A DNA stretch of 32,000 nucleotides from Candidatus Nanobsidianus stetteri (GTDB taxonomy: Archaea; Nanobdellota; Nanobdellia; Nanobdellales; Nanobdellaceae). Location of the stretch: positions 14,357-46,356 of the forward strand of contig APJZ01000007.1 in assembly GCA_000387965.1 (NCBI GenBank), read 5' to 3'. The notes under the pieces were generated by a model. The model was not told where the DNA came from. It ran no database searches and saw only the letters and a list, made by a program, of their open reading frames with translations. Position numbers and translations under genes: made by a program. Positions 12,815 through 31,186 of the stretch are shown in pieces. Position 1 is the first letter of the stretch. Each line of letters starts with the position of its first letter.

Positions 12815-12892
12815 ATATTTATAGAATAAGATATAATTTATCTGTATTATTATTAGCCACTTTTTATTTATATATATGATATCTTTATAAGC

Positions 12893-13207: not shown

Positions 13208-13257
13208 TTATTTAATTTTTATAAAAAACTTATAACTTTACCTCTTAGATATTAGGA

Positions 13258-14109
13258 ATGGGCGGAATAGCCATATTCACAAAAACCAATTTACAAGATT
13301 ATAGAATAATAAAATTAAAAGAGGAAATAAAAAATTATAATAACATTAGCATCATTGATATAGAAAAAGAAAATATATTTCCATATAGTGAAAAAATATT
13401 AAACTATGAATTATATTACTTTTTTGTTGGATCAAATTTTTTATCGGATATACATTTTTTGGCAAAATATCTCGAACAAAATGGAAAAGAAGTAATAAAT
13501 AAAATACATGTTAAAGAATCTATAATATCAAAAACTTTATTTTATAGTATCTTAAATAAATATATAAAAATTCCAGAATTTGTGAAAATATATTCGATAG
13601 ATAATATAGAATATGTAATAAATAAGATTGGATTTCCAATGATAATAAAGCATCAATTTATTCATAGAGGAGAATTTGTACATAAAATAGATAATGAAAA
13701 AGAGTTATATGATTTTTTAGAAAAATATTTATTAGAAAAGAAAATAAACATAAAAAATTTAATATTTCAAAAATATATACCTTATGAGAAAGATATAAGA
13801 GTAATTTTCGTAGGAAAACCAATTGGTGCAATGGAAAGAATTAATAAAAATAGTTTTAAAGCAAATATTAGTCAGGGAGGATATGGGAAAGAATATAAAT
13901 TGGATGAAGAAATAATAGATATTGGATATAAAATTATGGAAAAATGTGAATTACAAATATTTGCATTCGATCTATTATTAAAAGATAATCAATATTATTT
14001 GATAGATTTACATCATATATTCCAATATGAGGGATTTGATAAATATTTAAATAAAAATATTACAAAAGAAATATTAAAATACTTAAATGAAATTAGTAAT
14101 AAAAGCTAA
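13258..14109 (+). CDS. ATP-grasp family ligase (RimK-like)
   Basis: 283 aa. Pattern GFPMIIKHQF..G.FVHKIDNEKEL, LIFQKYIPYEKDIRVIFVG, KANISQGGYGKEY and FAFDLL...YYLIDLH matches the RimK/LysX-type ATP-grasp core. Substrate unknown. Confidence 0.7.
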   Translation: MGGIAIFTKTNLQDYRIIKLKEEIKNYNNISIIDIEKENIFPYSEKILNYELYYFFVGSNFLSDIHFLAKYLEQNGKEVINKIHVKESIISKTLFYSILNKYIKIPEFVKIYSIDNIEYVINKIGFPMIIKHQFIHRGEFVHKIDNEKELYDFLEKYLLEKKINIKNLIFQKYIPYEKDIRVIFVGKPIGAMERINKNSFKANISQGGYGKEYKLDEEIIDIGYKIMEKCELQIFAFDLLLKDNQYYLIDLHHIFQYEGFDKYLNKNITKEILKYLNEISNKS

Positions 14110-14494
14110 AGGAAATAAATTAATAAAGGCAACACATAAAAGTACTTTAGAACTTACTAAGGATAATTATCTAACTGAAAGGGGTGATTGTATAATTGGT
14201 ATAAGTGCAAATTATTCTGTAAAAGACTTACCAGAAGATCTTAAAGATCATTTATTAAATGAAGGAAAGATAAAGATTGTAATTAAAGTTGATGATTTAA
14301 TAGATGATATAATTGCATATGGTTCGAGAAAATTATTGTTAACAAATGATAGAAGTATTGTTATAAGAAAAAGCAATTATATTGATGATAGAACTTTAGC
14401 AATAAATTCAAATAAGAGTGCTATTGATATTGATAGAGAATTGATAGAAAGATTAAAAAATGAAAGGGAAATGGAATTTATTATATACTACTAA
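14087..14494 (+). CDS. DUF371-like protein
   Basis: 135 aa. KATHKSTLELTKDNYLTERGDCIIGISA resembles the conserved DUF371 N-terminal block as I recall it. Overlaps the ATP-grasp gene by 23 nt. Confidence 0.55.
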   Translation: MKLVIKAKGNKLIKATHKSTLELTKDNYLTERGDCIIGISANYSVKDLPEDLKDHLLNEGKIKIVIKVDDLIDDIIAYGSRKLLLTNDRSIVIRKSNYIDDRTLAINSNKSAIDIDRELIERLKNEREMEFIIYY

Positions 14495-14499
14495 AAATA

Positions 14500-14507
14500 T
14501 TTATAAA
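14500..14507 (+). promoter_or_regulatory. TATA-box-like element upstream of the surface-protein operon
   Basis: TTTATAAA is centred about 27 nt upstream of the ATG at 14531, the spacing expected for a leaderless archaeal transcript. AT-rich background makes chance matches likely. Confidence 0.3.
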
Positions 14508-14530
14508 GAATAAAATGTTTATCCTTAATT

Positions 14531-15292
14531 ATGAAAAGGAGAGGTATAGATATGGCTGTCCAATTAATATTTGTAATAATAATAATGCTAGTAGTAGCAG
14601 TTATTGTAATTAAGTTATTCCAGCAACAATCGTCAAAGATTAGTCAAATATCAAATACACAAATACAACAGGCAGTTTCTGATTGTTCAAGCTATTGTTC
14701 AAGCCCATATACATTTTGTACAAAGTATGAAAATATAGGAAATGGGCTTGTAGAAGTAAGTCCTGGATATTATGTTTGTTCAAATGCTGTTCCATGTAGT
14801 GTAGCATTACAATTATATGGAGGCTCTTCTAGTCAATGCCAATATGAAGGATTTACTATAACACCCCTTGATTGTATGTATCTAGAATGTCAAAATTATA
14901 TTGATAATTTATATTATGATCCATTAGCAGCAACAAGTTATGTATTTGGAAATTATTCTTCTACTACATATTTTAATGCAACAACTGGACAAGAAAATAT
15001 ACAAATTTCTTCTCCATCTCAAATATTAAATCCAGGTCCAGTACAATGTTCTGCACAATTACCAACATGGATTACAAATCAAGTATTTGGTGCATTATTA
15101 AAGATTATTAACTATTATGATACTGCAGATAATTGTAATTTGAATTTAACAGTTATTAATGGAGCATTAATGGTAACTGGAAATTGTACAACATTGGGTA
15201 TAAATAATAATGTCAATGGAATGCCATTATGTCAATTCTTATTGCAAGTACCATATTCCCAGTTAAATAATATACCAAGTACAACAAGCTAA
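14531..15292 (+). CDS. Secreted Cys-rich protein with class III (type IV pilin-like) signal peptide
   Basis: 253 aa. The N-terminus MKRRG/IDMAVQLIFVIIIMLVVAVIVI has a basic leader ending in Gly followed by a hydrophobic helix. There are 12 Cys and several N-x-S/T sequons. An alternative start at ATG 14552 is preceded by GGAGAGGT (14538-14545). Confidence 0.6.
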   Translation: MKRRGIDMAVQLIFVIIIMLVVAVIVIKLFQQQSSKISQISNTQIQQAVSDCSSYCSSPYTFCTKYENIGNGLVEVSPGYYVCSNAVPCSVALQLYGGSSSQCQYEGFTITPLDCMYLECQNYIDNLYYDPLAATSYVFGNYSSTTYFNATTGQENIQISSPSQILNPGPVQCSAQLPTWITNQVFGALLKIINYYDTADNCNLNLTVINGALMVTGNCTTLGINNNVNGMPLCQFLLQVPYSQLNNIPSTTS

Positions 15293-15296
15293 TGTA

Positions 15297-17267
15297 ATGA
15301 GTTTTTTTGAATATTTTTATAATAACTTCAATTTAATAAAATTAAAAGCTCCTAGTCCAATATATAAAAAATATGCATTTCATTTATGGTTAAATAGATT
15401 AAATACAAATCCGGATAATATATTTTCTTCTGTAATAACTCTTATAGTATTTTCTATAATCATATATTTCATTTTAAGTTTAGTAAGCTTTCAATTAGCT
15501 TTTTCTTTATTAATATCATTATTAATATTATCATTTTACTTTGCATATTATCCAATATTTTATACACAAGTTGTTAGAATACAAGTAACATCAGAAATTG
15601 TATGGATAATATTATATTTGTCATTATATCTAAAAAGGAATCCAAATTTAGAAAATGGAATAAAATATGTAGCATATTATATGAAAGGTTATATTGCAAC
15701 AGACTTTAGATCATTATTATATAATTTGGAAACAAATAAATTTAATGATATTGAATCTGCATTGGAATATTATCAGAGAAGATGGTTTTATTTGAGTCCG
15801 GATTTCGTATATGCAATGACCCATATTGTAAATATTAAATATAAGAATTCTATTGATGATATAAATAAATTATTAGATAGAATTTTGGAATGGGTATTGA
15901 AAAAGTCTTTAGAAAAATCTCAAATATATGTAGATGCATTAAAGGAACCAGCAACAGTTATAGTATCTTTCCTAGTAATGATGCCAATAGTTAGTTTGAT
16001 GATGTTACCAATAATATCTGTATTTTTATTAAATACTGTAAGTTTCTATTTCATAGCATTTTCATATATAATAATTTTACCAGTTATTACATTTTTAATA
16101 ATTCAAAATTTCTTATCAAAAAATCCATTTGCATTTTCTGTTCCAGATTTATCTTTAGCAAGAGATCTACCAAAACCTGGAAAATTTAAAATCGGAAATA
16201 AAGAAGTTCCAGCAATAATAATTTCAATAATATTAGGATCAATTGCAGTTTTAGGAATATATCATTTAATTTCCCTAGCTATAAAAATTACATTTATTCC
16301 ACAGGGATTTTTAAATGATTATTTAAATATAGTTTATCAAGATAGAGCATTAATATATTCTGTTTTAACTTTAACATTACCTTTAGGATTGGGTTTGGGT
16401 ATAGGATCTTATTATTATCTAACATCTTTCCAAAAGGTTAAAAAAATATATCAAATTGAAGAAATAGAAAATGAGTTCCCTATTGTTGTATATGAATTCG
16501 CATCATTATTAGAAGATGGCTATCCATTTGAGATAGTAATTGAAAAAACATATTACAATTATAAAATAATAAAATCTTCAGGGGTTATGGAAAATTTTCT
16601 AAAAACAACATTATATAATTTAAGAAGAGGTTATGATTTAATTACTTCTGTATTCGATCCAAAAATTGGTTCATTAAACTTATATCCATCAAAATTAGTA
16701 AGAGAATCAATGCAATTGTTAGTTACTTCTGCATCAAAAGGTCCTGAAGTTTTATCAAAAATTGCATATAATGTATCAACAAATTTAGAAAATGTGGATA
16801 ATATAAGATATAATGTAAGGAAAATATTAAATGAAATAATTGGATTAATAGATATGACATCAAGAAATCTAGTACCATTAATTTCTGCAATGGTTACGGT
16901 TTTTAATAATGGAGTAGTTTCAATGCTTTTTGCACTTGCATATTTCTTTCAATTAATAGACCAATCTTTTGGTTTAGGTGGGGGATCAAACTTATTCAAT
17001 TTCGTTGTAAATACATTTAATTTATATAATTTAATACCACCAACATTTTTTGAAGCAATAATCGGTATATTCTTTATAGAATATGTAATAATAACCTCAT
17101 ATATGAGTGCTGGAATAAAATATGGATTTGATAGAACAATGACATCATATTATATAGGTAGAAATTTATTATTCGGAACAATATTTTATGTAACATTTTC
17201 AATAATAGGAATATTAATAGTATATACAGTATTTGGCCCATATTTACCAACAAATATACAATTATGA
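15297..17267 (+). CDS. Polytopic membrane protein, candidate FlaJ/TadC/PilC-like (T2SS-F type) assembly platform
   Basis: 656 aa. Two soluble helical segments are each followed by TM bundles, the duplicated T2SS-F layout: about aa 95-215 (EIVWIILYLSLYLKRNPNLENGIKYVAYYM...DIESALEYYQRRW) and about aa 395-510 (EFPIVVYEFASLLEDGYPFEIVIEKTY...LRRGYDLITSVF...SKLVRESMQLLV). Judged by eye, not by profile search. Confidence 0.45.
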   Translation: MSFFEYFYNNFNLIKLKAPSPIYKKYAFHLWLNRLNTNPDNIFSSVITLIVFSIIIYFILSLVSFQLAFSLLISLLILSFYFAYYPIFYTQVVRIQVTSEIVWIILYLSLYLKRNPNLENGIKYVAYYMKGYIATDFRSLLYNLETNKFNDIESALEYYQRRWFYLSPDFVYAMTHIVNIKYKNSIDDINKLLDRILEWVLKKSLEKSQIYVDALKEPATVIVSFLVMMPIVSLMMLPIISVFLLNTVSFYFIAFSYIIILPVITFLIIQNFLSKNPFAFSVPDLSLARDLPKPGKFKIGNKEVPAIIISIILGSIAVLGIYHLISLAIKITFIPQGFLNDYLNIVYQDRALIYSVLTLTLPLGLGLGIGSYYYLTSFQKVKKIYQIEEIENEFPIVVYEFASLLEDGYPFEIVIEKTYYNYKIIKSSGVMENFLKTTLYNLRRGYDLITSVFDPKIGSLNLYPSKLVRESMQLLVTSASKGPEVLSKIAYNVSTNLENVDNIRYNVRKILNEIIGLIDMTSRNLVPLISAMVTVFNNGVVSMLFALAYFFQLIDQSFGLGGGSNLFNFVVNTFNLYNLIPPTFFEAIIGIFFIEYVIITSYMSAGIKYGFDRTMTSYYIGRNLLFGTIFYVTFSIIGILIVYTVFGPYLPTNIQL

Positions 17268-17548
17268 AATTACAACAATCAGTATATTGGATTATAATAA
17301 CTTTTATATTAATTATAGCTGCTGGTCTATTTTCTTTTTATTATATTTATAATGTAAAAAATAATTTAAGTGGAAATAATATACAAACAATTAATTGCCA
17401 ACAGTTGGAAAATTTATATAATAAAAGTTTTCAGGAAATAATTAATATTAAAGTATTTCTTAATGAAAATTGTACAATAAATGGAATAACAATACCTGCT
17501 GGCTATAGAATTATATATATTTATAACGGAAGTATTAATTATATATGA
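17264..17548 (+). CDS. Small pilin-like secreted protein
   Basis: 94 aa. N-terminus MKLQQSVYWIIITFILIIAAGLFSF. ATGA start/stop overlaps with both neighbours. Confidence 0.5.
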   Translation: MKLQQSVYWIIITFILIIAAGLFSFYYIYNVKNNLSGNNIQTINCQQLENLYNKSFQEIINIKVFLNENCTINGITIPAGYRIIYIYNGSINYI

Positions 17549-18024
17549 AAAATGATATAGCAATAGATACTGTATTTATTATCATAATAGCAATAATATC
17601 TGTTGCAGTTATATTAGATATTATTTACACAAAATTCTTTTACAATTCTCAAGCATATTATTGTCAATCATTAATATCACAAGGTGGTTTTTCTCCATCA
17701 TGTGAAAAATATTATCCTTCAGCAATAAATATTATATATACGAATGAAAGTAAGGATACAATTTATTCAGATATAACAGGATTGATATTAAATTGCTACA
17801 ATAATAATGTAAATACAAATAAATTATTTAACATATGTTATGATATTTATATAGATGAAAATATTACTCTACATTCATCAACATTAATTCAATACATACA
17901 AACTTATACTTCATTTAATCCAAATAATGTTATATTTCATTTAAATAATAGTGATGGAAATATTTATCCATACAATAGTATATTTATAATATACAACAAT
18001 AGTTATATTGTAATATGGCAATAA
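17545..18024 (+). CDS. Small pilin-like secreted protein
   Basis: 159 aa. N-terminus MKNDIAIDTVFIIIIAIISVAVILDIIY. Contains Cys residues and sequons. Translationally coupled. Confidence 0.5.
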   Translation: MKNDIAIDTVFIIIIAIISVAVILDIIYTKFFYNSQAYYCQSLISQGGFSPSCEKYYPSAINIIYTNESKDTIYSDITGLILNCYNNNVNTNKLFNICYDIYIDENITLHSSTLIQYIQTYTSFNPNNVIFHLNNSDGNIYPYNSIFIIYNNSYIVIWQ

Positions 18025-18428
18025 AGTCTCAAGAACTTCCAATTAATTATACCTTCTTAATAATTATAGGAATAATTGTTGTATCAGTAATTACTGGAAT
18101 AATATTTTTATTAAAAGGAAATATAACTTCTTATATTAGTAATACAATACCTAAATATAATAATACGCAAACTGTAGTAGAAACAAATGTAAGTTCAGTA
18201 CAAGATGTTGCAATGGATGTTGTAGCATGTTATTATAAAAAAGCGCAGGGTCTTTGTTATTTAATTAATTATCAAGGATCTCCATTTACATGTCAAGATT
18301 TAATAAACAATGTAAGTAGTATAGATCCAAACGTAGTAATGCAAAATTGCAATTATAATATAAATCCTGGAGAATATATATTAGTATATTCGGCAGGAAA
18401 TTATGTTTATATTAATGTTCAAGGATAA
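18015..18428 (+). CDS. Small pilin-like secreted protein
   Basis: 137 aa. N-terminus MAIKSQELPINYTFLIIIGIIVVSVITGIIFLL. Overlaps the upstream gene by 10 nt. Confidence 0.5.
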   Translation: MAIKSQELPINYTFLIIIGIIVVSVITGIIFLLKGNITSYISNTIPKYNNTQTVVETNVSSVQDVAMDVVACYYKKAQGLCYLINYQGSPFTCQDLINNVSSIDPNVVMQNCNYNINPGEYILVYSAGNYVYINVQG

Positions 18429-18430
18429 AA

Positions 18431-18871
18431 ATGGAAAAGTGGTTTTGGATAATTGTAACAATTATTGCATTTGGTTTATCTTTATATTTATATTTTAAAT
18501 TTTCCAGTATAAATAATCAGACTCAATTATTATATCAGGATATATCTTCATGCCAAAATTTATATACAACCATTGAAAAAGTATGTTATTCAAACAATGG
18601 AACGGAATTGTATATTAATATTGAAATAAATAAGTATTTAAATTATATATATGCTAATAATAATTTATTAAGTTGCTATATATATAATGAATATTATAAT
18701 TATACAATACCATGTAATGTAATAATAAATACAGCAAATAATATGATTCAATATTATACTTCCGGACTATTTTATGAATTATCATATGGATATCCAAATG
18801 AAAAAATTCCATTACTTGTTGAAAAAACTTCTCCAACAGAAGTAACAATTTATATAGAAAATCCAAGTTAA
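18431..18871 (+). CDS. Small N-terminally anchored secreted protein
   Basis: 146 aa. N-terminus MEKWFWIIVTIIAFGLSLYLYF. Starts 2 nt after the previous stop. Confidence 0.45.
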   Translation: MEKWFWIIVTIIAFGLSLYLYFKFSSINNQTQLLYQDISSCQNLYTTIEKVCYSNNGTELYINIEINKYLNYIYANNNLLSCYIYNEYYNYTIPCNVIINTANNMIQYYTSGLFYELSYGYPNEKIPLLVEKTSPTEVTIYIENPS

Positions 18872-18907
18872 AACATTTTTAAAATTTTTAAATATTATTA
18901 GATCATA

Positions 18908-20407
18908 ATGAAAAGATATCAATTAAATTTACTTTCAGTAGCAATAATATTGGTAATTATATCTTTAGCTTTTATAATATATTATCAATATTCTATGAAT
19001 GTTAAAGAACAACAAGAAAATTTAATATTTGAAAATTTTATTAATAACTTACAAAATTTAGAAAATACAATAAATAGTATTCAAGGTACATATTATATAA
19101 AAGTCAATATACCAAATGGAATTATATTATATGCAAATGGCCCAAAATTAATAATACAATATAATAATAATAATTATACAATTGATTTTCAAAACAAGAC
19201 AGTAGTTTTATATAATAATAATCAAAATGTGAACTTTTTATATCCAAATAATCATATATATATTGTTAGTACAAATAATACTATTTTTGTTACAACAAAT
19301 CTTCAAAATTCAATTACAATATTAAATGAATATCTATCAAATGGAAATCTTGTATATATAAATCCTGAAAACATAAATAACAATAATGAAGGAAATAATC
19401 AAGGAAATAACAATAATAATATTAACCAAAATGTTCAATGCTTATTTCAATATAATGGACAAGCAAACTTTTTCTGGGGTGATGTAAATGGAAATAATTA
19501 TTTACCTCCAATAGGAGATCAGGGAGAATGTGGAGATTGTTGGGCTTTTGCATCTGCAAATGGAATTGCTTCAATATATATGATAAGAAATAATCAACCA
19601 AATGATGGATTACAATTATCCCCAGCATATTTAGCAATAGAGTGCAATAATGGATATCCAAACACTCCAAATTATTGTAATTCCAATGAAGGTTGTACTG
19701 GTGGTGTTGTATATCCTGCTCTATTATTTACATCTCAATATGGAATTCCACCTGATCAAGGATGGAACTATTATAATTCTACTTTAGCTAACTGTTTAGA
19801 AAATAATAATCAAAATTATCCTGGTGATGTATGTAATTACAATTATAATGGACCTAACTCTCCATTATATTATTCGCAAGGTGTTATATTTCTTACACAA
19901 AATGGACCTTTAACAGATCAACAAGTAATTCAAGATTTATTATGTTATGGACCATTAGTAGCTGCCGGATTTCTAGGAGGTAGTGGTGGATCAAATCCAA
20001 ATATAAATCCTCAACAACCAATACTTAATACAGGACATGCTATGTTATTAGTTGGTTATACCACTAGCAATACTATATATTCCCAACTATGTCAAGAAGT
20101 ATATGAAACCCCTAATTGTTGGATATTTGAGAATCAATGGGGAGATAATTCAGCTTGTATAGTTCTTACTACAAGCGGAGTACCAGTACCTGGACCAAAC
20201 AACCCTAATCAGTGTGGTGAATTATATCAAAATTATCAGGATTGTAATAATTATCTACAATTGGTTCTTAAAGTACCCGGAGTATCATGTGGAGGTGTGT
20301 ATTGGATGCAAGATGGATATTTGCTTGTACCATTCGATCAATCCTCATATGGCCAAACATTTCCATACTATATAGTTGCAATTCAAAATGTCACTCTCGC
20401 ACAATAA
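18908..20407 (+). CDS. N-terminally anchored papain-like (peptidase C1) cysteine protease
   Basis: 499 aa with an N-terminal helix MKRYQLNLLSVAIILVIISLAFII and an Asn-rich linker. The C-terminal domain has DQGECGDCWAFASANG (Gln at -6 and the catalytic Cys codon at 19538-19540), NTGHAMLLVGY (His) and FENQWGDN (Asn-x-Trp). Confidence 0.8.
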   Translation: MKRYQLNLLSVAIILVIISLAFIIYYQYSMNVKEQQENLIFENFINNLQNLENTINSIQGTYYIKVNIPNGIILYANGPKLIIQYNNNNYTIDFQNKTVVLYNNNQNVNFLYPNNHIYIVSTNNTIFVTTNLQNSITILNEYLSNGNLVYINPENINNNNEGNNQGNNNNNINQNVQCLFQYNGQANFFWGDVNGNNYLPPIGDQGECGDCWAFASANGIASIYMIRNNQPNDGLQLSPAYLAIECNNGYPNTPNYCNSNEGCTGGVVYPALLFTSQYGIPPDQGWNYYNSTLANCLENNNQNYPGDVCNYNYNGPNSPLYYSQGVIFLTQNGPLTDQQVIQDLLCYGPLVAAGFLGGSGGSNPNINPQQPILNTGHAMLLVGYTTSNTIYSQLCQEVYETPNCWIFENQWGDNSACIVLTTSGVPVPGPNNPNQCGELYQNYQDCNNYLQLVLKVPGVSCGGVYWMQDGYLLVPFDQSSYGQTFPYYIVAIQNVTLAQ

Positions 20408-21215
20408 ATATTTAATAGCATTATCTATTCTCTTTTTCATAATTTTATCTTACAATATATATTCTATGAGGAATCCATTTGCAGTTTATTGCGAATATGG
20501 TGGAGGAACATATTATATAAATAGTACAGGATCTTATTGTATTGTAAATGGTACATATTTTAATGCTCTACAATATTATGAGAATAATGTGCCTCCCCAA
20601 TATTCTTTCTGTGCCCATTATGGATTAATATATGTAAATAACAGTTATTGTGAATATCCAAATGGAACATTAGTTAGTCCATATACATTAATCCCTCCAT
20701 CAACATATCAAGACCTAATTTTACCTACACCACCTATATTATGTAATAGTTTATTAAATTGTTCAAATACTCCTTGGTATTATCAACCATGTTCAAATCA
20801 AATCTATCCATGCTTTAATCCTCCATATATACCCCAATCTTACTTAACAGGTAATACTTCTTATCAAACTCTTTTATCTACATATCAACAAGAATATCAA
20901 TGTGGGTATTGTCCAGAAAACTTATCATTTGAAGGAGATTGGTTTAGATGTCCATATAATTATTCATTAAATCAGTTATATCAAGAATTTCTAAAACAAT
21001 GTCCACCACCAAATATTGTTTATATATCATGTACAGGAGTATTTGAATGCGTAAATCAGACTGAAATAAATTTAACAAATAATACACAGCAATTAATTTA
21101 TCCACAACCAAATATAAGTAATAAAAGTAATAATGTTAATTTAATTTTACCAATAGCAATAGTAATAGTAATAATTATAATAGGCCTAGTTATTCTTTTA
21201 TATTATCTAAAATGA
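20376..21215 (+). CDS. Cys-rich surface protein with DUF333-like repeats and a C-terminal TM anchor
   Basis: 279 aa with a signal-like segment YLIALSILFFIILSYNIYS. NPFAVYCEYGGGTYYINSTGSYCIVNGTYF resembles the DUF333 (COG3042) NPA-x-VYC...GG...YC pattern, and FCAHYGLIYVNNSYCEYPNGT is a weaker second copy. C-terminal LILPIAIVIVIIIIGLVILLYYLK. The start is uncertain (ATG 20388 also possible). Confidence 0.45.
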   Translation: MQFKMSLSHNKYLIALSILFFIILSYNIYSMRNPFAVYCEYGGGTYYINSTGSYCIVNGTYFNALQYYENNVPPQYSFCAHYGLIYVNNSYCEYPNGTLVSPYTLIPPSTYQDLILPTPPILCNSLLNCSNTPWYYQPCSNQIYPCFNPPYIPQSYLTGNTSYQTLLSTYQQEYQCGYCPENLSFEGDWFRCPYNYSLNQLYQEFLKQCPPPNIVYISCTGVFECVNQTEINLTNNTQQLIYPQPNISNKSNNVNLILPIAIVIVIIIIGLVILLYYLK

Positions 21216-22825
21216 AAAATCAGATAAATACATTAGCATTTGTTATTATTATTTCAATAATAATTTTATTAATTGTTTTAGTTTATCTTTTATCAACTAG
21301 TTCTAGTTCTAAAATAACACAAACATATAATGTAGAAAACCAATATACATTAACAATTCAAAATAGCGTTGATTTATTACCTTATATTTATGATAATAAA
21401 GTTAATTTATCCTATGCATTTTTATTATCATATTTTTCATCTTCTGGAAATGATACATATTGTATAAATCAAAATACATGTACAAACATATCGGAAGATT
21501 TAATAAATTACTTTGACAGTATATATGGAAATAGATGGAATTTAACTATATATTTTATCCCACCAGTAACTGGATGGGTTGTTCAGATGTTTATAATAGG
21601 TGGTAATATTGGAAATTGGGATCCGTGTTCAATGAATCCTCCCCCAGATCCCAATGGTACGCAATGGTATGAATGGAATTACACATATTTCTTTGTAGAT
21701 AATTATACAGAAAATATTAATCTACCGAATGTATACAATCCAATTACTAATACGCCAATAAGTCAAACCTTATATGGAGCAGGATGGGTAAATGCAACAG
21801 CACCTTTTCATCAGTCTAATTCAATAAGTTCTTGGGGATTACCAACATTATATAATAACCTGGATCAATCTCAGGCAATACAAACAGGTTTCTGTACACC
21901 ATTAACAAAAATATTTCCAAATTATAATTTTACAGAAGCTTCTGTATATTGCCCTCAAGGTAAATGGAATCTATTTCCAAATTTTGGAACTTCGCCAACT
22001 TCTTCATTACCACAATTTTTCTCTGGTTGGATAGGAATTGGAACTCCAGTAGCAGGCTCTCAATATTTAACAGATGTTGGTTACTATTATTATGGACCTC
22101 CAACATATAAAACAGCTACTGATATAAATAGATTAGCAGAATTTATAATCCCACAACAATATTTAGATAAAATATGCCAAGAAGAATTTGGTACTCAGCA
22201 ATGCGGGAGTCAAGAATTGATTGTTGGGTCATTTTATAGAGGTGTAGTAAATATACCACCAAATTGTCAGCAAGTATTTATAGATTATCCCTGGCATGAA
22301 GTAATAAGATTATATATTTCATTTTTGAATAAGAGCGGAGAACCAGATTATGTATTTTTAGCGGCAGATCCTCTATGTGAATATAATTTAAATGGAAAAT
22401 TAATAGATTGTCCAACTGGTGTATTTGATAATATACAAAATGTAAATGGAATTATTGTTGGAAAAGACTGTCCTCTAGTTTATTTAATGGATCAAAATTC
22501 ATATGCCGAAGGATTGTATAGATTTAATATTACTAAATGGGTAATAGATGATAGAGATTCAAATACAAATCAATTTATAATTTCTGCAGTATATTATGAT
22601 CCTCATAATGGAGGAAATGGAGTTGCAATGGCAAGAGTATATTGTATTACAAATACTGGAAATAAAGAAGAATTAAACGCATATATTTATCAAGGTAATG
22701 AAGAAAGTATAAATCTAGGATATCCAATACCTCCGAATACAAATATATATGTTTATTATATATATTTACCAGTAGATGTATCATTCTTGGGCGGATATTT
22801 AGTTGCTAAATTAACAGTATGGTAA
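21212..22825 (+). CDS. Large pilin-like-anchored secreted protein, unknown fold
   Basis: 537 aa. N-terminus MKNQINTLAFVIIISIIILLIVLVYLL. Many Cys and N-x-S/T sequons. ATGA overlap with the upstream gene. Confidence 0.55.
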   Translation: MKNQINTLAFVIIISIIILLIVLVYLLSTSSSSKITQTYNVENQYTLTIQNSVDLLPYIYDNKVNLSYAFLLSYFSSSGNDTYCINQNTCTNISEDLINYFDSIYGNRWNLTIYFIPPVTGWVVQMFIIGGNIGNWDPCSMNPPPDPNGTQWYEWNYTYFFVDNYTENINLPNVYNPITNTPISQTLYGAGWVNATAPFHQSNSISSWGLPTLYNNLDQSQAIQTGFCTPLTKIFPNYNFTEASVYCPQGKWNLFPNFGTSPTSSLPQFFSGWIGIGTPVAGSQYLTDVGYYYYGPPTYKTATDINRLAEFIIPQQYLDKICQEEFGTQQCGSQELIVGSFYRGVVNIPPNCQQVFIDYPWHEVIRLYISFLNKSGEPDYVFLAADPLCEYNLNGKLIDCPTGVFDNIQNVNGIIVGKDCPLVYLMDQNSYAEGLYRFNITKWVIDDRDSNTNQFIISAVYYDPHNGGNGVAMARVYCITNTGNKEELNAYIYQGNEESINLGYPIPPNTNIYVYYIYLPVDVSFLGGYLVAKLTVW

Positions 22826-24027
22826 AAAAAGAAGATAAGATTTTATTTCTTATATATTTAATTTTGTTTTTACTTTTTATTTATATTAGCAACTTTAATA
22901 TTAATATAATTATCTTTGGTACAATATATTTATTCTTATTGTCCTTTATATTAAAAAATTCGAAGAATACATCTTTAATATACAAATTAACATTTTTATA
23001 TATACCAATTGGGATTTTTGGAATTTATACCAATCTACCTTTACCATTTCCATTTCCGTCAATATTTACTTATGTAGTAAATTATTGGATATTTTATTTT
23101 ATAGCATTTTCTTTAGGATATTATCTATTTGAAAACAACTTTTATATTTCAAAAAAATCTCTAATATTCTATATAATTTCTATAATTTTATATATAATAT
23201 TATTTTTCTTTGAATTAATATATAATTCTGTAACTACAGATTTAGATGTATCAGTGGGAAATATAATAATTTTATTTCTTATCTTTGTCTCTCTATATCT
23301 ATATATTTTCAAAATAATATATTCATCTCTATTTATAATATTTGCCATATTCTTATTTCTAGTTGCATATTTTAATAGCAATGAAATATTAATAGTAAAA
23401 ACAAAAATATATGAAAAGATATCAAAAATATATAAATACAAAAAGTATATATTTCTGTTAATATTTCTTATAATAATATTACAGATTATCATTGCTATAA
23501 ACAAATTATTATTGTATAATGGTTTAATTATAGAAAGTTCAACTGGAAAATATATTATCTACGAATATGAATCTCTAATATTTTTATCTATATACGAATT
23601 TATAATTTACTTTTTAGTTTATAGAAATTTAAGATATAATAATTATACAAGTTATTTCTTACTTTTTACTATGGTTTTAATAATATTTTTTGGAGAACTA
23701 TATTTATCAAATGTAGATTTTACTTCTGCAGCTTTACATACTAGATATCTAATAGCTATGCTATTTTTCTTTATGGGTATACACCATAAAATATATAAAA
23801 ATAGTAAAAGAGTAATTACAAAAGCTCTAGGTATTTCTATTGGTATTTTAATCTTGTTACAAAATATAACTGGAGAATTCCTTGAATCAGTATTGTTTGG
23901 AGGACCAAGTAGTATACATTTAGTATCTATACCAAATATATTAATAGCACTCGGAATTATACATGGATTAGTAACGCCAATTCTTATATTAACATTTATA
24001 TATTTACATATTAAATTAAAAATATGA
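22819..24027 (+). CDS. Polytopic membrane protein (copy A; C-terminal 2/3 lies inside the inverted repeat)
   Basis: 402 aa with about 10 hydrophobic segments. From VGNIIILFLIF onward it is identical to the partial ORF 31183..32000 (-). Confidence 0.6.
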   Translation: MVKKEDKILFLIYLILFLLFIYISNFNINIIIFGTIYLFLLSFILKNSKNTSLIYKLTFLYIPIGIFGIYTNLPLPFPFPSIFTYVVNYWIFYFIAFSLGYYLFENNFYISKKSLIFYIISIILYIILFFFELIYNSVTTDLDVSVGNIIILFLIFVSLYLYIFKIIYSSLFIIFAIFLFLVAYFNSNEILIVKTKIYEKISKIYKYKKYIFLLIFLIIILQIIIAINKLLLYNGLIIESSTGKYIIYEYESLIFLSIYEFIIYFLVYRNLRYNNYTSYFLLFTMVLIIFFGELYLSNVDFTSAALHTRYLIAMLFFFMGIHHKIYKNSKRVITKALGISIGILILLQNITGEFLESVLFGGPSSIHLVSIPNILIALGIIHGLVTPILILTFIYLHIKLKI

Positions 24028-24606
24028 GAAATCAAACAGAAATTATTTATGTAGTTTTATTTCTAACAATTGCTATATTAATAATCCTTCTATCTTTCTA
24101 TGCATTGACATATAATTATAATCAAAATATTGTTTTTAATAGATTCACTTCTTTATCTACACTATCAAACTATTTTTTGGGATATTTACAAACATTATTA
24201 ACACAGGAAAGTTATGCAGAATCATATTTAGCTGGAACAAATGGATGGGGAAAAGAAAATTGGGCTTCTTATCCTTACGGATGTATATTACCTCAATCAT
24301 GTCAAAATGCAATTCAATATTATAATAACTTGCTAACTTCTGGATATCAAACTTTATTAACTTTTGGAGAACAATATTTAACTGCATATCAATATTATTA
24401 TCCTTATAATGTATCTTTCAATTTTTCAAATAATTATCAGGCAGGAATCTTCGGAGATTGTAATAATATAATTTCCGGAGAATATAATTATAATTTTCCT
24501 GTCTATGTTCAAGGATTATATATAAATATTACTGGACCTTCTTCAGGTTCAATAATTCCATATGCAAGTACATCAAATATAACAAACAATCCCGCATTCT
24601 ATTTAT
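23210..24606 (+). repeat. Inverted repeat arm A (at least 1397 bp, identical to arm B)
   Basis: Position x here pairs with position 55210-x on the opposite strand. Spot-checked DNA at 23211-23260, 24001-24060, 24361-24420 and 24591-24606. All four ORF-track proteins in the arms are identical between copies. Confidence 0.9.
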
Positions 24607-24614
24607 TTAACTAA
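24024..24614 (+). CDS. Truncated duplicate of the 412-aa pilin-like Cys-rich protein
   Basis: 196 aa. The first 194 aa are identical to ORF 29948..31186 (-). Identity ends at 24606 and a TAA follows at 24612-24614. Confidence 0.5.
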   Translation: MRNQTEIIYVVLFLTIAILIILLSFYALTYNYNQNIVFNRFTSLSTLSNYFLGYLQTLLTQESYAESYLAGTNGWGKENWASYPYGCILPQSCQNAIQYYNNLLTSGYQTLLTFGEQYLTAYQYYYPYNVSFNFSNNYQAGIFGDCNNIISGEYNYNFPVYVQGLYINITGPSSGSIIPYASTSNITNNPAFYLFN

Positions 24615-25086
24615 TCAATCATCAATAATTGGAATAGCGGTTGCAACAAATGTAATAAGTTTATATGTTGGACAAGAATATAAATATTCTGTCTTAATAA
24701 AAAATCTAGTACCAGCAGATATTCAATGTTCTTTAGTACCAACTCCATCAACTACAAACGATAAAGCAATTGTTACAAATTATAGTATAAATGGAATAGT
24801 TAGCAATGAATTTACTATAGGTCCTTATGGATCTGCAGAATTAGATATAAATATTTTAGGATCTTCCAGTGGTGTAAGTAGTTTGGTATATGGTATAACA
24901 TGTAATTCTACATATGGTTCCTCATCATTTAGTACCCAAGTTCCAATATATGTATTGGGACCAAATAATTTAATAGCAAACTATACACAATCTGAAATAG
25001 TAGTATCTGAAAATATATCTCCAACAGATTTAATTGGAATTGGGGGTTTAATAGTAGGATTACTTGCTTTGTTTAATATAATCTAA
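24583..25086 (+). pseudogene. Start-less open frame encoding a beta-rich surface module with a C-terminal TM anchor (orphaned 3' gene part, or joined to 24024..24614 by a +1 shift)
   Basis: Frame 1 is open from 24583 to the stop at 25084-25086, about 167 codons, with no ATG/GTG/TTG before the TTG at 24883. The translation ...LIKNLVPADIQCSLVPTPSTTNDKAIVTNYSINGIVSNEFTIGPYGSAELDINILG...PTDLIGIGGLIVGLLALFNII looks like real coding sequence. It begins exactly where the repeat identity ends. Confidence 0.4.
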
Positions 25087-25371
25087 TTTTTTTAATTTTT
25101 TTCTTATTTCCAATATTATGTCATGAAGTGCAGCACCTAAAAATAATGTTGTTAATATATATAATTCATACAAATATGTAATTGCTCCAATTATTATTGA
25201 TATTATTCCAAATATTGATAAATACATATGATGAATCTTTGCTCTATATTCTCTTGTCTTTGTTCTAATTTCAATAAAGAATTCTGGTGAAAATTTTTTA
25301 ATTATATAATCTGCTGAAAAATATCCTATTATGAATGATAGACCATAAGTCATTATAGTGATATCGTTCAT
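25060..25371 (-). CDS. Small membrane protein, unknown function
   Basis: 103-aa ORF with 3 hydrophobic segments. Converges on and overlaps the end of the 24583..25086 frame. Confidence 0.45.
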   Translation of the reverse strand: MNDITIMTYGLSFIIGYFSADYIIKKFSPEFFIEIRTKTREYRAKIHHMYLSIFGIISIIIGAITYLYELYILTTLFLGAALHDIILEIRKKLKKLDYIKQSK

Positions 25372-25425
25372 TTTATAATATTTTTATTCATCATTTTAAA
25401 AAATTATATCATATAAATTAATTAC

Positions 25426-25710
25426 ATGGATCTAAAAATAATAAATAGGGAAAATAATCAATTATTAAATAGGGAAGAAATTATTGTTTTAATAGATCAT
25501 AAAAATGAACCAACACCAAAGAGAGATGATATAAGGGAAAAAATTTCAGCAATGATTGGAAAAGACAAAAATTTAATTGTAGTAGAAAAAATATTAACAG
25601 AATTTGGAAAACAGAGATCAAAAGCATTTGTAAATGTATATCAGAATGAAGAAGATATGAAAAAATTAGAGCCAAAACATATATTAAAAAGGAATAAAAT
25701 TATACAATGA
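25426..25710 (+). CDS. rps24e: 30S ribosomal protein S24e (eS24)
   Basis: 94 aa. NQLLNREEIIVLIDHKNEPTPKRDDIREKISAMIGKDKNLIVVEKILTEFGKQRSKAFVNVY matches the S24e pattern. Followed by S27ae as in most archaea. Confidence 0.9.
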   Translation: MDLKIINRENNQLLNREEIIVLIDHKNEPTPKRDDIREKISAMIGKDKNLIVVEKILTEFGKQRSKAFVNVYQNEEDMKKLEPKHILKRNKIIQ

Positions 25711-25910
25711 GCGGAAAGAAAGATTTGAAAATATTAAAATTATACAAGGTTGAGGATAATAAGGTAGTTAGATTGAAAAAGGTATGTCCAAAATGTGGAA
25801 GATTTATGGCAGAGCATGAGGATAGGTATCATTGTGGATATTGTGGATATACAGAATTTAAGCAAAATATAGAAAAGAAGTATATAAAGGAAATTGGAAT
25901 ACAAATATAA
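25707..25910 (+). CDS. rps27ae: 30S ribosomal protein S27ae (eS31)
   Basis: 67 aa. Zinc ribbon CPKCGRFMAEHEDRYHCGYCGYTEF. ATGA overlap with rps24e. Confidence 0.88.
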   Translation: MSGKKDLKILKLYKVEDNKVVRLKKVCPKCGRFMAEHEDRYHCGYCGYTEFKQNIEKKYIKEIGIQI

Positions 25911-28159: not shown

Positions 28160-29230
28160 TTAGATATGCTTTTTATATATTAAATGTATATAAATTAATA
28201 CTAATCCTATAATTGCTAATATTAGTAAGTTTATTGAAAATAAAATTATAAATAAAGGAAAATTAAATATAGTTCCTGGATTAATATAGTAGAAATAATT
28301 TGCTAAATTCATTAATATAAATGGTATTCCTGAAACAATTCCCAAAATTATTTTTTTACTGTCTGGAAACCTATGAAATAAATATGCATGAATTGCAGTA
28401 AAGAAAAATAAAAACATAATTATAATATTTTGAATAATGTAAATTATATTGTTTTTTGTTAAGAAGAATAGAATTGTAAAGAAGATAAATAGAAATATTA
28501 TTAATATTAAAATATATGCTGTGAACCCTTCCGGTTTATTATTAAATATTCTTTTAATCATCAACATTAAAATAAATTCTAATATTGTGAATAATGATAT
28601 GGTAAATAATATTAAAATATTTTGAACAATTAAAGAAAGTATTAACTGTATGGATAAGAAAAGAGAAATTATAGAGAAGATAATCTGTTTATTTTTGTCT
28701 AAAAAATTTAATGAAGTTAAATGATATATTTTTTTATCATCTAAATTGAATAAAAATCCTAAAAGAGATATAAAAAATAGTGAATAAATATTCATAATAT
28801 TATATGATGTTATAAATAAAACATATATTAGAGAAATTGTTAATATTATTATTTGCTTTCTATTTATAGATAATTTATTCTCTGCGACAAAATTTCCAAA
28901 GAAATAAAATAAAATAAATGAAAAGAATACATAAACAAAATATTTAAATAAAATATTATTGAAAATATTCAATATAGGCAATATAAAAATTAATAGATAT
29001 AAAATTTTTATCATATTGAATTTTGTATTTTTCAGGAAATAATATAAAGCAAAGAAGTAAAATATTCCAAATAAGATATAATATAAATTTGTAAAAAATA
29101 ATATAGATATTGGGAATATTATTAAATATAATATAAGTATATGTTTATTGATATTTTTGTTTTCGTCAATTAATTTATCTATAATAGTTTCACCCATTAT
29201 ATATAAAAATCCATTAAAACTTTTATGCAA
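28160..29230 (-). CDS. Polytopic membrane protein, possible paralog of the 402-aa membrane protein
   Basis: 356 aa with about 10 hydrophobic segments. Shares local patterns with ORF 22819..24027: YFLKNTKFNMIKILYLLIFI versus FILKNSKNTSLIYKLTFLYI, and AIHAYLFHRFPDSKKIILGIVSGI versus GIHHKIYKNSKRVITKALGISIGI. Its start overlaps the upstream pilin-like gene by 8 nt. Confidence 0.5.
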   Translation of the reverse strand: MHKSFNGFLYIMGETIIDKLIDENKNINKHILILYLIIFPISILFFTNLYYILFGIFYFFALYYFLKNTKFNMIKILYLLIFILPILNIFNNILFKYFVYVFFSFILFYFFGNFVAENKLSINRKQIIILTISLIYVLFITSYNIMNIYSLFFISLLGFLFNLDDKKIYHLTSLNFLDKNKQIIFSIISLFLSIQLILSLIVQNILILFTISLFTILEFILMLMIKRIFNNKPEGFTAYILILIIFLFIFFTILFFLTKNNIIYIIQNIIIMFLFFFTAIHAYLFHRFPDSKKIILGIVSGIPFILMNLANYFYYINPGTIFNFPLFIILFSINLLILAIIGLVLIYIHLIYKKHI

Positions 29231-29870
29231 TTCTAAAGTATGTTTGATTAATTCTTTCTAAATATGCTGTTACAAGTTGATAAAATGTAATATTATTTAC
29301 TGAATAGCATGGTATATAATTGCATATAATATCTCCATTTGTATTTTCAGTACATGTTACATTTCCAGATAAATTTGTTGGAAATAAGAATACAAAAGTT
29401 TGATTTGAAGTATTTTCATTACTTAAACAAAAACTATATAAAAAGTAATAGAAATCTGAATAATAGTTTTTACATATAGTTAATTTAATATAGTCTAAAG
29501 AATAATATACAGAAATTGGATATGTATATGTATTACAATTTCCATTAAAATTTATTATTCCAAAACTATAATTATCTATTTCTGCTCTAAATGTATAGGG
29601 AAATATTGTACAATTTGGAAGTTCATTATAATATGTTTGGTTAAATTCTTCTATTTTATCTAAAGTTGTAAAATATATTGGATAGCCAGGATATCCTAAA
29701 CAATTGGGAGAAAATAGGTCATATATTATATCTTGTTCATATGAAAAAGATGTTTGTTCTTGATAATTTGTTAAATTTACATTGGAAAATATAGCTAATA
29801 AAATTATCATTCCAACTAAAAATAATACTGTTAATATTGTTATAAATACTATGGAAAATTGCTCTTTCAT
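29223..29870 (-). CDS. Pilin-like-anchored Cys-rich secreted protein
   Basis: 215 aa. N-terminus MKEQFSIVFITILTVLFLVGMIILLAIF. Many Cys and N-x-S/T sequons. Confidence 0.5.
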   Translation of the reverse strand: MKEQFSIVFITILTVLFLVGMIILLAIFSNVNLTNYQEQTSFSYEQDIIYDLFSPNCLGYPGYPIYFTTLDKIEEFNQTYYNELPNCTIFPYTFRAEIDNYSFGIINFNGNCNTYTYPISVYYSLDYIKLTICKNYYSDFYYFLYSFCLSNENTSNQTFVFLFPTNLSGNVTCTENTNGDIICNYIPCYSVNNITFYQLVTAYLERINQTYFRIA

Positions 29871-29947
29871 TTTATTTAATTATTTAAAACATATTTTATA
29901 TCCTTAACTTTTTCTGTCAGATTTGTTTTCATTTTTCCATATAAGGA

Positions 29948-31186
29948 TTAACTGGATGGTTGTGGTACACATTCATTTGGGAAATTTATATTTTCTGGGC
30001 AAGTTGGATTATTTGGACATTGTCCAAGTAAACATGCAGGACATTGTTGTCCACCAATTATACACATATAACATTGAATTGGGATTGAATAATAATATTG
30101 AAAAGTATATATTACTTCATTATTTTGCTGATTTGTATTTAAATTACCACAACCACTTTGGGAAGTACATGAATATTGTTGATTTTCTAATGTACAACTT
30201 TGAGATATTATTTGTTTGCTTGTTGAATTATATACTTCAGTACAGTCATATACACAATTTAGATAATATTGATTTGTTATATTTTCATAAAAAACTATTG
30301 AAGTAATAGATATGGTTTGTGGATATGTATTACCATTATAATATACATTATATTGGTTATCAGAACATTTTAATATTACTCTACATGCAATTTCTTGTGG
30401 ATATAAACATATCTGGCATAATGGAATATTTACACATTGATATGGAATTATTGTTTCATTACATTGAATATTTGGATCATTTGAAAATTGCTCAAATTCT
30501 TGTGCACAAGTATATGTTGGGTTATTGTTTAAAGCATTTGAACAATCCTGATATGAACATTCTGAAAAATCTCCATTTTGAGAGAATTGATATGCTAAGT
30601 TATATAAATAGAATGCGGGATTGTTTGTTATATTTGATGTACTTGCATATGGAATTATTGAACCTGAAGAAGGTCCAGTAATATTTATATATAATCCTTG
30701 AACATAGACAGGAAAATTATAATTATATTCTCCGGAAATTATATTATTACAATCTCCGAAGATTCCTGCCTGATAATTATTTGAAAAATTGAAAGATACA
30801 TTATAAGGATAATAATATTGATATGCAGTTAAATATTGTTCTCCAAAAGTTAATAAAGTTTGATATCCAGAAGTTAGCAAGTTATTATAATATTGAATTG
30901 CATTTTGACATGATTGAGGTAATATACATCCGTAAGGATAAGAAGCCCAATTTTCTTTTCCCCATCCATTTGTTCCAGCTAAATATGATTCTGCATAACT
31001 TTCCTGTGTTAATAATGTTTGTAAATATCCCAAAAAATAGTTTGATAGTGTAGATAAAGAAGTGAATCTATTAAAAACAATATTTTGATTATAATTATAT
31101 GTCAATGCATAGAAAGATAGAAGGATTATTAATATAGCAATTGTTAGAAATAAAACTACATAAATAATTTCTGTTTGATTTCTCAT
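29948..31186 (-). CDS. Pilin-like-anchored Cys-rich secreted protein (full-length copy)
   Basis: 412 aa. N-terminus MRNQTEIIYVVLFLTIAILIILLSFYAL. About two dozen Cys, densest at the C-terminus (CYMCIIGGQQCPACLLGQCPNNPTCPENINFPNEC). The first 194 aa lie in repeat arm B. Confidence 0.6.
   Translation of the reverse strand: MRNQTEIIYVVLFLTIAILIILLSFYALTYNYNQNIVFNRFTSLSTLSNYFLGYLQTLLTQESYAESYLAGTNGWGKENWASYPYGCILPQSCQNAIQYYNNLLTSGYQTLLTFGEQYLTAYQYYYPYNVSFNFSNNYQAGIFGDCNNIISGEYNYNFPVYVQGLYINITGPSSGSIIPYASTSNITNNPAFYLYNLAYQFSQNGDFSECSYQDCSNALNNNPTYTCAQEFEQFSNDPNIQCNETIIPYQCVNIPLCQICLYPQEIACRVILKCSDNQYNVYYNGNTYPQTISITSIVFYENITNQYYLNCVYDCTEVYNSTSKQIISQSCTLENQQYSCTSQSGCGNLNTNQQNNEVIYTFQYYYSIPIQCYMCIIGGQQCPACLLGQCPNNPTCPENINFPNECVPQPSS

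Follow-up and report, generated by a model that had tools for sequence, protein, structure and literature searches.

Introduction

Raynaud et al. (2021, PMC8179133) predicted bacterial proteins in which a pilin is joined to an S74 or an M26 peptidase; these peptidase-pilins are uncharacterised. For archaea, Makarova et al. (2016, PMC4858521) described arCOG01814 as 'Pilus assembly protein TadC' of subclade 4F, whose gene is typically followed by genes for small predicted pilins with one transmembrane (TM) segment, and they could not identify the cognate pilins in nanoarchaea. Hamm et al. (2019, PMC6642349) proposed that the SPEARE proteins of Nanohaloarchaeota degrade the S-layer of the host, and reported them to be absent from Nanoarchaeota. 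In addition, cryo-electron tomography (cryo-ET) of the nanoarchaea YN1 and YN4 showed that the host S-layer is displaced and the symbiont S-layer is replaced at the attachment organelle. Here, we describe a papain-family peptidase gene, which we call gene 7, of Candidatus Nanobsidianus stetteri (Nst1), a very small archaeon whose cells live on those of other archaea. It lies in a pilus-like cluster of 13 genes on a 32,000-nucleotide (nt) stretch of contig APJZ01000007.1 (assembly GCA_000387965.1, positions 14,357 to 46,356 of the forward strand). This whole stretch is referred to as the window, and coordinates are those of the window unless another locus is named.

The open reading frame (ORF) of gene 7 occupies 18908..20407 on the + strand, begins with ATG, and encodes 499 amino acids (aa). 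It is Nst1_643, and its product is 100% identical to EOD42226.1 / R1G2C5 (R1G2C5_NANST), which already carries the name 'Peptidase C1A subfamily' in NCBI and UniProt. Nst1_643 was listed as the ortholog of Nanopusillus acidilobi Nps_00495 in arCOG03611 (Wurch et al. 2016, Supplementary Data 1). The C1A annotation is public, so it is not new. What is new is the context of the gene, namely a TadC cluster, a carrier and a cargo that are separable, and a putative DUF333 partner. Literature searches found no prior description of this context. The genome papers on Nst1 and N. acidilobi do not use the words protease, peptidase, pili or pilin in their main texts; in the YN1 paper, 'peptidase' stands solely in the reference list and pili are not mentioned.

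Results

Gene 7 carries a papain-family catalytic domain

In the Pfam search, gene 7 matched the profile PF00112 (Peptidase_C1) over residues 197-414 with 64.6 bits and an E value of 1.8e-17, and its phmmer matches in PDB sequences were ananain, cathepsins C, L, K and B, falcipain and papain. Window positions 19517-19552 translate to DQGECGDCWAFA, and the codon of the catalytic nucleophile Cys211 is hence 19538..19540. The codons of Gln205 (oxyanion hole), His377 (catalytic base) and Asn409 (the Asn of the N-x-W motif) are 19520..19522, 20036..20038 and 20132..20134, respectively, all on the + strand. In the translation, these residues stand in the contexts CGDCWAF (Cys211), GHAMLLVGY (His377) and ENQWG (Asn409). 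Cys211, His377 and Asn409 were invariant and Gln205 was nearly so in an alignment of 22 family sequences. The catalytic residues were still invariant or nearly so when 53 distant C1 peptidases of 20-30% identity had been added.

The fold was predicted with AlphaFold (AF2). The first model, built on the 22-sequence family-only alignment, had a predicted local distance difference test score (pLDDT) below 50 at residues 144-325 and a poor L-lobe, and the E values of its Foldseek matches were >= 0.015. A second alignment of 76 sequences took in distant C1 peptidases besides the Nanopusillaceae family. The model obtained with it had a mean pLDDT of 84 and a predicted template modelling score (pTM) of 0.69, with residues 177-499 mostly above 90. 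Foldseek found 191 PDB matches to this model at E<=1e-3. The top 50 were all C1A peptidases, and the target-normalised template modelling score was up to 0.76. The best match was cathepsin C (7e-11), followed by cathepsins B, S, L, K, V, F, X and H, Der p 1 and cruzain. Taken together, gene 7 is a genuine papain-family (C1A) peptidase as judged from profile, residues and predicted fold, and its catalytic activity is predicted.

An earlier note on this DNA, made from the letters and their ORFs, had proposed a papain-family protease with a complete catalytic set, and the profile match, the residue conservation and the predicted fold bear this out. The motifs that it named, DQGECGDCWAF, NTGHAMLLVGY and FENQWGDN, are all in the gene 7 translation and its coordinates are correct. 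Of the checks that it had proposed, the PF00112 search gave the above 64.6 bits against a gathering cutoff of 20.7, and structure prediction recovered the papain fold and no prodomain. For the family as a whole, therefore, the fold is recovered and the catalytic Cys and His are kept. The C-terminal part of roughly 320 aa in which it placed the catalytic set is a single C1 domain with an insertion of ~45 aa, and there is no extra C-terminal domain.

The catalytic domain was delimited from Pfam, the alignments, AF2 and Foldseek as residues 177-499 (19436..20404, + strand). The insertion follows the N-x-W motif and is lineage-specific; L017, the most divergent ortholog, is without it. We had considered a separate C-terminal domain after residue 414, and rejected it: the insertion (about residues 417-460) lies inside the R-lobe of the C1 fold and is absent in L017. 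The domain has 14 invariant Cys besides the catalytic one. An I29 prodomain was also considered. Pfam gave no I29 propeptide match in gene 7, and the model N-terminal to the catalytic domain consists of a helix, strands and a disordered linker, so this candidate was rejected as well.

The family comprises ~45 full-length relatives of 36-82% identity; wherever a source is named, it is one of the Nanopusillaceae. Word-based homolog searches, run both with the full protein and with the protease domain, returned Nanopusillaceae only; consequently, a donor lineage is not nameable.

The N-terminal part is predicted to be a helix and a beta head joined to the protease by a linker

Gene 7 begins with MKRYQLNLLSVAIILVIISLAFIIYY, a short basic leader directly followed by ~20 hydrophobic residues. 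Both AF2 models predicted one continuous helix of 56 residues that starts at residue 2/3 and ends at residue 57. Residues 2-57 (18911..19078, + strand) can be divided into the basic leader MKR, a membrane segment of hydrophobic residues at ~7-27, and a stalk at 28-57 that is amphipathic. The helix is followed by a predicted all-beta head of eight strands at residues 62-129 (19091..19294, + strand), for which the AF2 model and a stand-alone protein of YN1 described below are the evidence. The pLDDT was 71-94 in the helix and 65-94 in the head strands (about residues 61-129). The Asn/Gly-rich linker at residues 133-176 (19304..19435, + strand) is predicted to be disordered from its pLDDT below 50, its length variation and its translation; in orthologs, its length is 34-86 residues. 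Mean pairwise identity was 78% in the helix, 75% in the stalk plus head and 63% in the protease. Conservation is thus higher in the carrier than in the enzyme.

The N-terminal pattern M-[KR]-x(1-3)-[Q/D] followed by ~20 hydrophobic residues was found in 6/13 cluster proteins (genes 3, 4, 7, 9, 11 and 12) and in 0/20 other proteins of the window. These N-termini are encoded at 17264-18024, from 18908, from 21212 and at 29223-31186. In gene 7, Gln5 is invariant and the residue before it is free. The conserved Gln5 pattern may be a lineage-specific processing site in genomes that have no recognisable prepilin peptidase.

Cys content differs strikingly between the proteins of the window. Cytoplasmic proteins of the window contain 0-1 Cys, except for the Zn-binding RNA polymerase subunits, and the polytopic proteins of the cluster (genes 2, 10 and 13) contain zero. 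The single-TM cluster proteins have even Cys counts (12, 14, 12, 24 and 8; 2-4 in the small ones), and the 15 Cys of gene 7 are 14 plus the catalytic Cys. Because of the basic N-terminus and this Cys distribution, the gene 7 product would have an N-in/C-out topology with disulfide-bonded extracellular domains, as suggested by composition and the positive-inside rule.

Carrier and cargo are separate modules in YN1

The cluster of Nanoarchaeota archaeon YN1 (AP031373.1, locus L016) is syntenic with that of Nst1 and shows domain shuffling at L016 positions 9149-12689. Its order there is gene 6 fused to the protease, a gene-8 paralog, a 141-aa N-domain, and a second, shorter gene-8 paralog. The N-domain is a stand-alone protein (L016 11733..12158) that aligns end to end with gene 7 residues 1-135 and stops exactly where the linker of gene 7 starts. 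The protease domain is fused instead to the C-terminus of gene 6, via an Ig-like segment and a Pro/Ser linker, and the fusion product is the 579-aa YN1_4420, annotated as 'hypothetical protein'.

Carrier and cargo are separable because the N-domain of YN1 stands alone and its protease is fused to gene 6. The N-domain thus counts as one of the small cluster proteins in its own right, and the protease is a cargo that was hung on two different carriers of the same cluster during evolution. The swap in YN1 is hard to reconcile with a protease that simply happens to lie in the cluster.

Gene 7 lies in a pilus-like cluster around a TadC homologue

Genes 1-10 (14531-24027) are co-oriented, and their junctions overlap by 4-20 nt or have a gap of <=36 nt. 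None of the neighbours of gene 7 among genes 1-10 had a direct match in Pfam or NCBIfam. Gene 1 (14531..15292, + strand; 253 aa, 12 Cys) was assessed by N-terminal comparison. It starts with MKRRG/IDMAVQLIFVIII, where the slash marks the putative cleavage position, and MK[RK]R[GA]/IDMAVQL was found in five lineages. Variants are MKKRA/ID in L006 and MRKRA/LDMAIQL in L017, and the residue at -1 is G or A in every lineage. From these sequences, the N-terminus is judged to be a canonical archaeal class III (prepilin-type) site, and gene 1 is a candidate major pilin-like subunit.

Gene 2 (15297..17267, + strand) encodes a 656-aa polytopic membrane protein that we assign, from its homologue family and its arCOG, as a diverged TadC/FlaJ platform (arCOG01814, subclade 4F type). 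Among 1.84 billion proteins, the family has 601 representatives at E<=1e-3. PF00482 (T2SSF) was found in 14 of 25 sampled members, with a best E value of 7.4e-9, and the family profile matched the cytoplasmic domain of GspF/EpsF in PDB (E 0.0023). Gene 2 itself had no match in direct Pfam, NCBIfam and PDB searches, and its TadC homology is only transitive and via the published arCOG. Independently of these searches, Wurch et al. assigned gene 2 to arCOG01814.

Genes 3-6 (17264..18871, + strand) encode four proteins of 94-159 aa with one N-terminal TM helix each and 2-4 Cys, which are candidate minor pilin-like subunits; the N-terminus of gene 5 has KS/Q. Paralogy of these small neighbours and the N-domain of gene 7 was considered and found no support, as the HHalign match of the helix extends even to the C-terminal TM segment of gene 8. 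Downstream of gene 7 are gene 8 (20388..21215, + strand; 275 aa), and genes 9 and 10 (21212..24027, + strand). Gene 9 encodes 537 aa with a pilin-like N-terminus and 12 Cys, and gene 10 a polytopic protein of 402 aa with no family match. Comparison with related genomes showed that genes 13, 12 and 11 (28160..31186, - strand) belong to the same cluster and are inverted in this assembly; in all related genomes, genes 11-13 directly follow gene 10.

The earlier note had spoken of a pilus-like operon from the sequence alone, and this is borne out more strongly than it could know, with gene 2 as a TadC/FlaJ homologue and a class III signal in gene 1. The Asn-rich linker that it described is present at about 19367-19435 as ENINNNNEGNNQGNNNNNINQNV. 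Its roughly 140-aa unknown domain corresponds to an N-domain of ~130 aa that is indeed present with its hydrophobic helix and is better conserved than the protease.

Gene 8 may link the protease to DUF333

The product of gene 8 has a signal/TM segment at its N-terminus and a TM tail at its C-terminus; between them lie a putative, divergent DUF333 and a region rich in Cys and sequons. The C-terminus (P-x, ~17 hydrophobic residues, YYLK) resembles a sorting-signal-type tail. PF03891 (DUF333) was detected in many of the distant C1 peptidases with E values of 1e-17 to 1e-20, where it is N-terminal to C1 in the prodomain position. Such DUF333-C1 fusions occur in many unrelated metagenomic proteins, so the two domains form a recurrent pair. 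No functional data on DUF333 were found in the literature, and it has no solved relative. The recurrent pairing suggests that DUF333 is a regulator, an inhibitor or a chaperone of C1 domains, and it is the first functional lead for DUF333.

The cluster is conserved across Nanopusillaceae

The order RimK, DUF371, genes 1-2-3-4-5-6-7-8-9-10-11-12-(13) was identical in every sufficiently long locus. The syntenic loci include N. acidilobi 7A (complete genome), several Nanopusillus metagenome-assembled genomes (MAGs), YN1, a Nanopusillaceae MAG whose protease is 40% identical, and L017 at 36%. Synteny is thus strict over 36-82% protease identity. In the comparison of the cluster proteins with those of L017, identity was highest for TadC (62%) and lowest for genes 7 and 8 (36% and 35%, respectively). 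This pattern fits what would be a machine that is conserved while its exposed parts evolve fast. Jarett et al. reported that non-synonymous variation is raised in surface proteins of nanoarchaea and also in a homologue of FlaJ/TadC. Nanoarchaeum equitans was absent from the 11 loci of a pattern-based genome scan that finds close relatives only, and the absence of the gene 7 locus from this organism is only suggested.

Other features of the window

The window is archaeal and AT-rich (about 24% GC). A perfect inverted duplication of 1408 nt was observed at 23210-24617 and 30593-32000, the second arm of which reaches the window edge. Window positions 8905-24621 are collinear with L001, and 24844-31998 correspond to L001 14395-21543 in reverse-complement orientation. 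Two copies are thus present of the 3' part of gene 10 and of the gene 11 5' half, and the 196-aa ORF at 24024-24614 is a truncated version of gene 11, which is encoded in full (412 aa) at 29948-31186 (minus strand). All related genomes are collinear across the inverted region. The duplication probably arose as a chimera during assembly or amplification of the single-cell Nst1 genome; alternatively, it is a very recent inversion. Gene 10 (22819-24027) and gene 13 (28160-29230, minus strand) are polytopic proteins with similar N-termini and no family match, and they flank genes 11-12. According to Wurch et al., genes 10 and 13 have 10-11 TM segments.

One side of the window carries rpoH, a split rpoB, rpoA'/A'', ribosomal protein genes and a cytochrome bd subunit gene. 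Cytochrome bd oxidase subunit I (PF01654) is encoded at 1647-3008 (minus strand), followed by a 298-aa membrane ORF at 754-1650 without a family match, which may be the subunit II that Jarett et al. (2018) discussed as unannotated and fast-evolving. The cytochrome bd genes are adjoined by a 172-aa ORF of the phage integrase family at 244-762 (PF00589, E 3e-43), which has a TTG start and is short for a tyrosine recombinase. Between the S7 and S12 genes, a 271-aa ORF with a hydrophobic N-terminus and no family match (4200-5015, minus strand) interrupts the otherwise conserved rpo-S12-S7 block.

Discussion

We propose, with a probability of about 0.5, that gene 7 is an active extracellular C1A peptidase that is held outside the cell by a separable pilin-like carrier and presented at cell-cell contact by a TadC-built cluster, with an S-layer as the substrate. 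The flexible Asn/Gly linker of variable length would give the protease its reach from the membrane. The carrier would belong to the 13-gene, co-oriented and translationally coupled cluster around the TadC platform, the class III signal protein and the single-helix proteins, and this cluster may be a type-IV-filament-like, bindosome-like or pseudopilus-like surface display system whose ATPase is encoded elsewhere. Presented by, or beside, this assembly at the contact between the cells, the protease would cleave the S-layer at the junction, belonging either to the host or to the symbiont, whose S-layer is replaced locally where it attaches. The putative DUF333 protein of gene 8 may regulate or restrain the protease. 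Filament display, the substrate and the role of DUF333 are the parts of this model that we infer. The earlier note had offered an attack on the host S-layer and the processing of partner proteins as inference, and both keep that standing here. Papain-type enzymes work best at acidic pH and under reducing conditions, and this optimum matches the acidic hot-spring habitats.

Several results weigh against this proposal. With K/R at -2 and G/A (or S) at -1 as the criterion, gene 7 has no canonical prepilin-peptidase site, and its -1 residue is Y, N, G, D, L or S across orthologs. The N-domain had no pilin family match in Pfam and NCBIfam, and its profile found nothing among PDB sequences. In HHalign, the N-domain and the small neighbours matched with a probability below 30%, confined to the hydrophobic TM helix. 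The predicted lollipop layout of a long N-terminal helix and a beta head is only suggestive. With neither the cleavage motif nor sequence similarity to pilins, gene 7 is not established as a type IV pilin. Accordingly, the label 'pilin-like' that the earlier note gave to the N-terminus holds for the architecture (a helix with a head, the shared pattern and an autonomous domain) and does not hold for a cleavage site or pilin homology. N-glycosylation sequons are not enriched in gene 7 (z = -1.2) and are strongly enriched in genes 8 and 12; we therefore dropped sequon enrichment as evidence for surface exposure of gene 7.

The assembly machinery adds further points of this kind. No secretion ATPase (VirB11/PilB) was found in the cluster, in the window, or <=10 kb to either side in related loci. 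In N. acidilobi, an arCOG01818 ATPase adjoins a second arCOG01814 paralog elsewhere in the genome and was detected in the proteome; as a candidate ATPase in trans for the cluster, it speaks for the proposal. Two nanoarchaea were described as lacking a prepilin peptidase (Makarova et al. 2016, PMC4858521), and the prepilin peptidase arCOG02298 is not listed in the N. acidilobi gene table. The N. acidilobi proteome data (Wurch et al., Supplementary Data 1) give no abundance value for Nps_00465-00525, the orthologs of genes 1-13; the RimK-like protein encoded beside them was detected. Membrane proteins are often missed in such data.

Two departures from the catalytic set also count against the proposal. 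In the Nanopusillus MAG RSNP5 (L012, 10001-11554), the catalytic Cys is replaced by Tyr (CGDYWAF), and the L004 (4742-6388)/P0038/P0039 lineage has Thr for the oxyanion Gln and Phe for the Trp of N-x-W. These proteins are otherwise full length and keep all 14 other Cys. They would be expected if the papain fold gripped a surface protein of the host as an adhesin and catalysis were dispensable. We regard such a pseudo-protease as very unlikely, given that every other family member examined (about 45 sequences) retains Cys, His and Asn and that the catalytic residues hold even alongside distant C1 peptidases. Moreover, a single base accounts for the Cys-to-Tyr replacement, which was seen in one metagenome-assembled genome and could be an error. 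Both departures may reflect sequencing errors or a relaxation of selection on catalysis.

An active protease may also be directed at the symbiont itself, either maturing extracellular parts of the cluster's own proteins for assembly or clearing the symbiont S-layer where an appendage or attachment cone is inserted. Gingipains, for instance, mature type V pilins. The position of the protease in the middle of the cluster, with translational coupling, and its physical fusion to a different cluster protein in YN1 agree with a self-directed role, and the lack of a recognised prepilin peptidase makes an unconventional processing of pilin-like proteins conceivable. We nevertheless consider this role unlikely: no conserved cleavage motif was identified in the partner proteins, and genes 7 and 8 are the fastest-evolving of the cluster, a rate more in keeping with an external target that varies than with a self target that is conserved. 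Its catalytic domain is, furthermore, predicted to lie outside the cell, where it cannot remove leaders that face the cytoplasm. For the same reason, we rejected the specific idea that the protease substitutes for the missing prepilin peptidase. A further possibility is a nutritional exoprotease, in which the helix would be an uncleaved signal anchor, the enzyme would digest protein from the environment or released by the host, and the position in the cluster would be mechanistically meaningless. Such an enzyme would explain why gene 7 has no canonical class III site and no pilin homology; it would also suit organisms that lack most biosynthesis and are grown with peptone and yeast extract, and many of the distant relatives are secreted multidomain C1 peptidases. 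Strict synteny over the whole identity range speaks against it, as do a carrier more conserved than the enzyme, an N-domain that is an independent conserved member of the cluster, and a protease that swaps between two cluster carriers and not onto a generic signal peptide. We consequently hold a purely nutritional role to be improbable.

Returning to the proposed surface-displayed S-layer peptidase, a more far-reaching version can be formulated, in which the cluster is the host-contact apparatus of Nanopusillaceae/Nanobdellales. It would be a TadC-driven filament that bears the papain protease as a modular tip or collar subunit and opens the S-layer at the point of contact, with the putative DUF333 protein as its inhibitor or immunity factor and with subunits made independently of a prepilin peptidase. 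We put this version forward as speculation that is quite unlikely to hold in full. Under it, the structure is possibly the ~8 nm filament or portal of the 'attachment organelle' seen by cryo-ET, and the M-[KR]-x-x-Q N-termini would be the sign of a route to filament subunits that is particular to this lineage.

The locus is a concrete, family-conserved gene set that bears on the passage of DPANN archaea through the host S-layer and on their attachment structures, and it is available in cultured co-cultures, namely N. acidilobi-Acidilobus, YN1-Sulfurisphaera and the related YN4. Gene 7 is a candidate tool for opening the protein shell where two cells join, and it extends the idea of the 'modular pilin' to archaea with an enzyme as cargo. 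In addition, the cluster supplies candidates for the 'missing' nanoarchaeal pilins of Makarova et al. (2016, PMC4858521).

Comparison with known systems

Gene 7 shares with the C1A peptidases (cathepsins B, C, L, S and K, papain and falcipain) the profile, the Gln-Cys-His-Asn apparatus and the two-lobed fold, which is predicted in gene 7. It differs from them in having a membrane helix and a beta head in place of a cleavable signal and an I29 prodomain, as well as in the ~45-aa insertion after N-x-W, and its identity to the nearest relatives outside Nanopusillaceae is 24-33%. Furthermore, gene 7 has ~7 putative disulfides, whereas papain has 3.

In architecture, gene 7 resembles the modular pilins PilB and PilC of Streptococcus sanguinis (Raynaud et al. 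2021, PMC8179133), which, like gene 7, consist of a small N-terminal module, a linker and a grafted module that also occurs independently. In contrast to the bacterial modular pilins, gene 7 is archaeal, carries a C1 cargo, has neither an IPR012902-type nor a [KR][GA] motif and no detectable pilin homology, and is a candidate filament subunit.

In the Sulfolobus bindosome, functional proteins that are not pilins have pilin-type N-termini with class III signals and need a TadC-like protein and small pilin-like proteins to be assembled at the surface, and in this respect it is similar to gene 7. Here, however, the cargo gene is inside the cluster and the ATPase gene is not, and the cargo is an enzyme, whereas that of the bindosome is a solute-binding protein. 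PibD processing is documented for the bindosome and has no counterpart here. The archaeal type IV pilus loci of subclade 4F (arCOG01818 ATPase and arCOG01814 TadC; PMC4858521) resemble the locus of gene 2 in that TadC is followed by small one-TM proteins, as in the halobacterial 4F loci. Unlike in those loci, the ATPase gene is not adjacent, the putative pilins have unrelated sequences, and the cluster also encodes a protease and a putative DUF333 protein.

SPEARE of Nanohaloarchaeota (Hamm et al. 2019, PMC6642349) is, as predicted for gene 7, a membrane-anchored extracytoplasmic protease domain in a DPANN ectosymbiont. The two are unrelated, and the opening of a host S-layer by a surface protease of a DPANN archaeon had already been put forward for SPEARE. 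Lastly, the DUF333-C1 fusions of uncultured bacteria and archaea show the same pairing of C1 and DUF333 as genes 7 and 8. In those proteins, both domains are on one polypeptide with DUF333 at the N-terminal side, whereas here the putative DUF333 is on the product of the next gene, which has its own membrane anchors.

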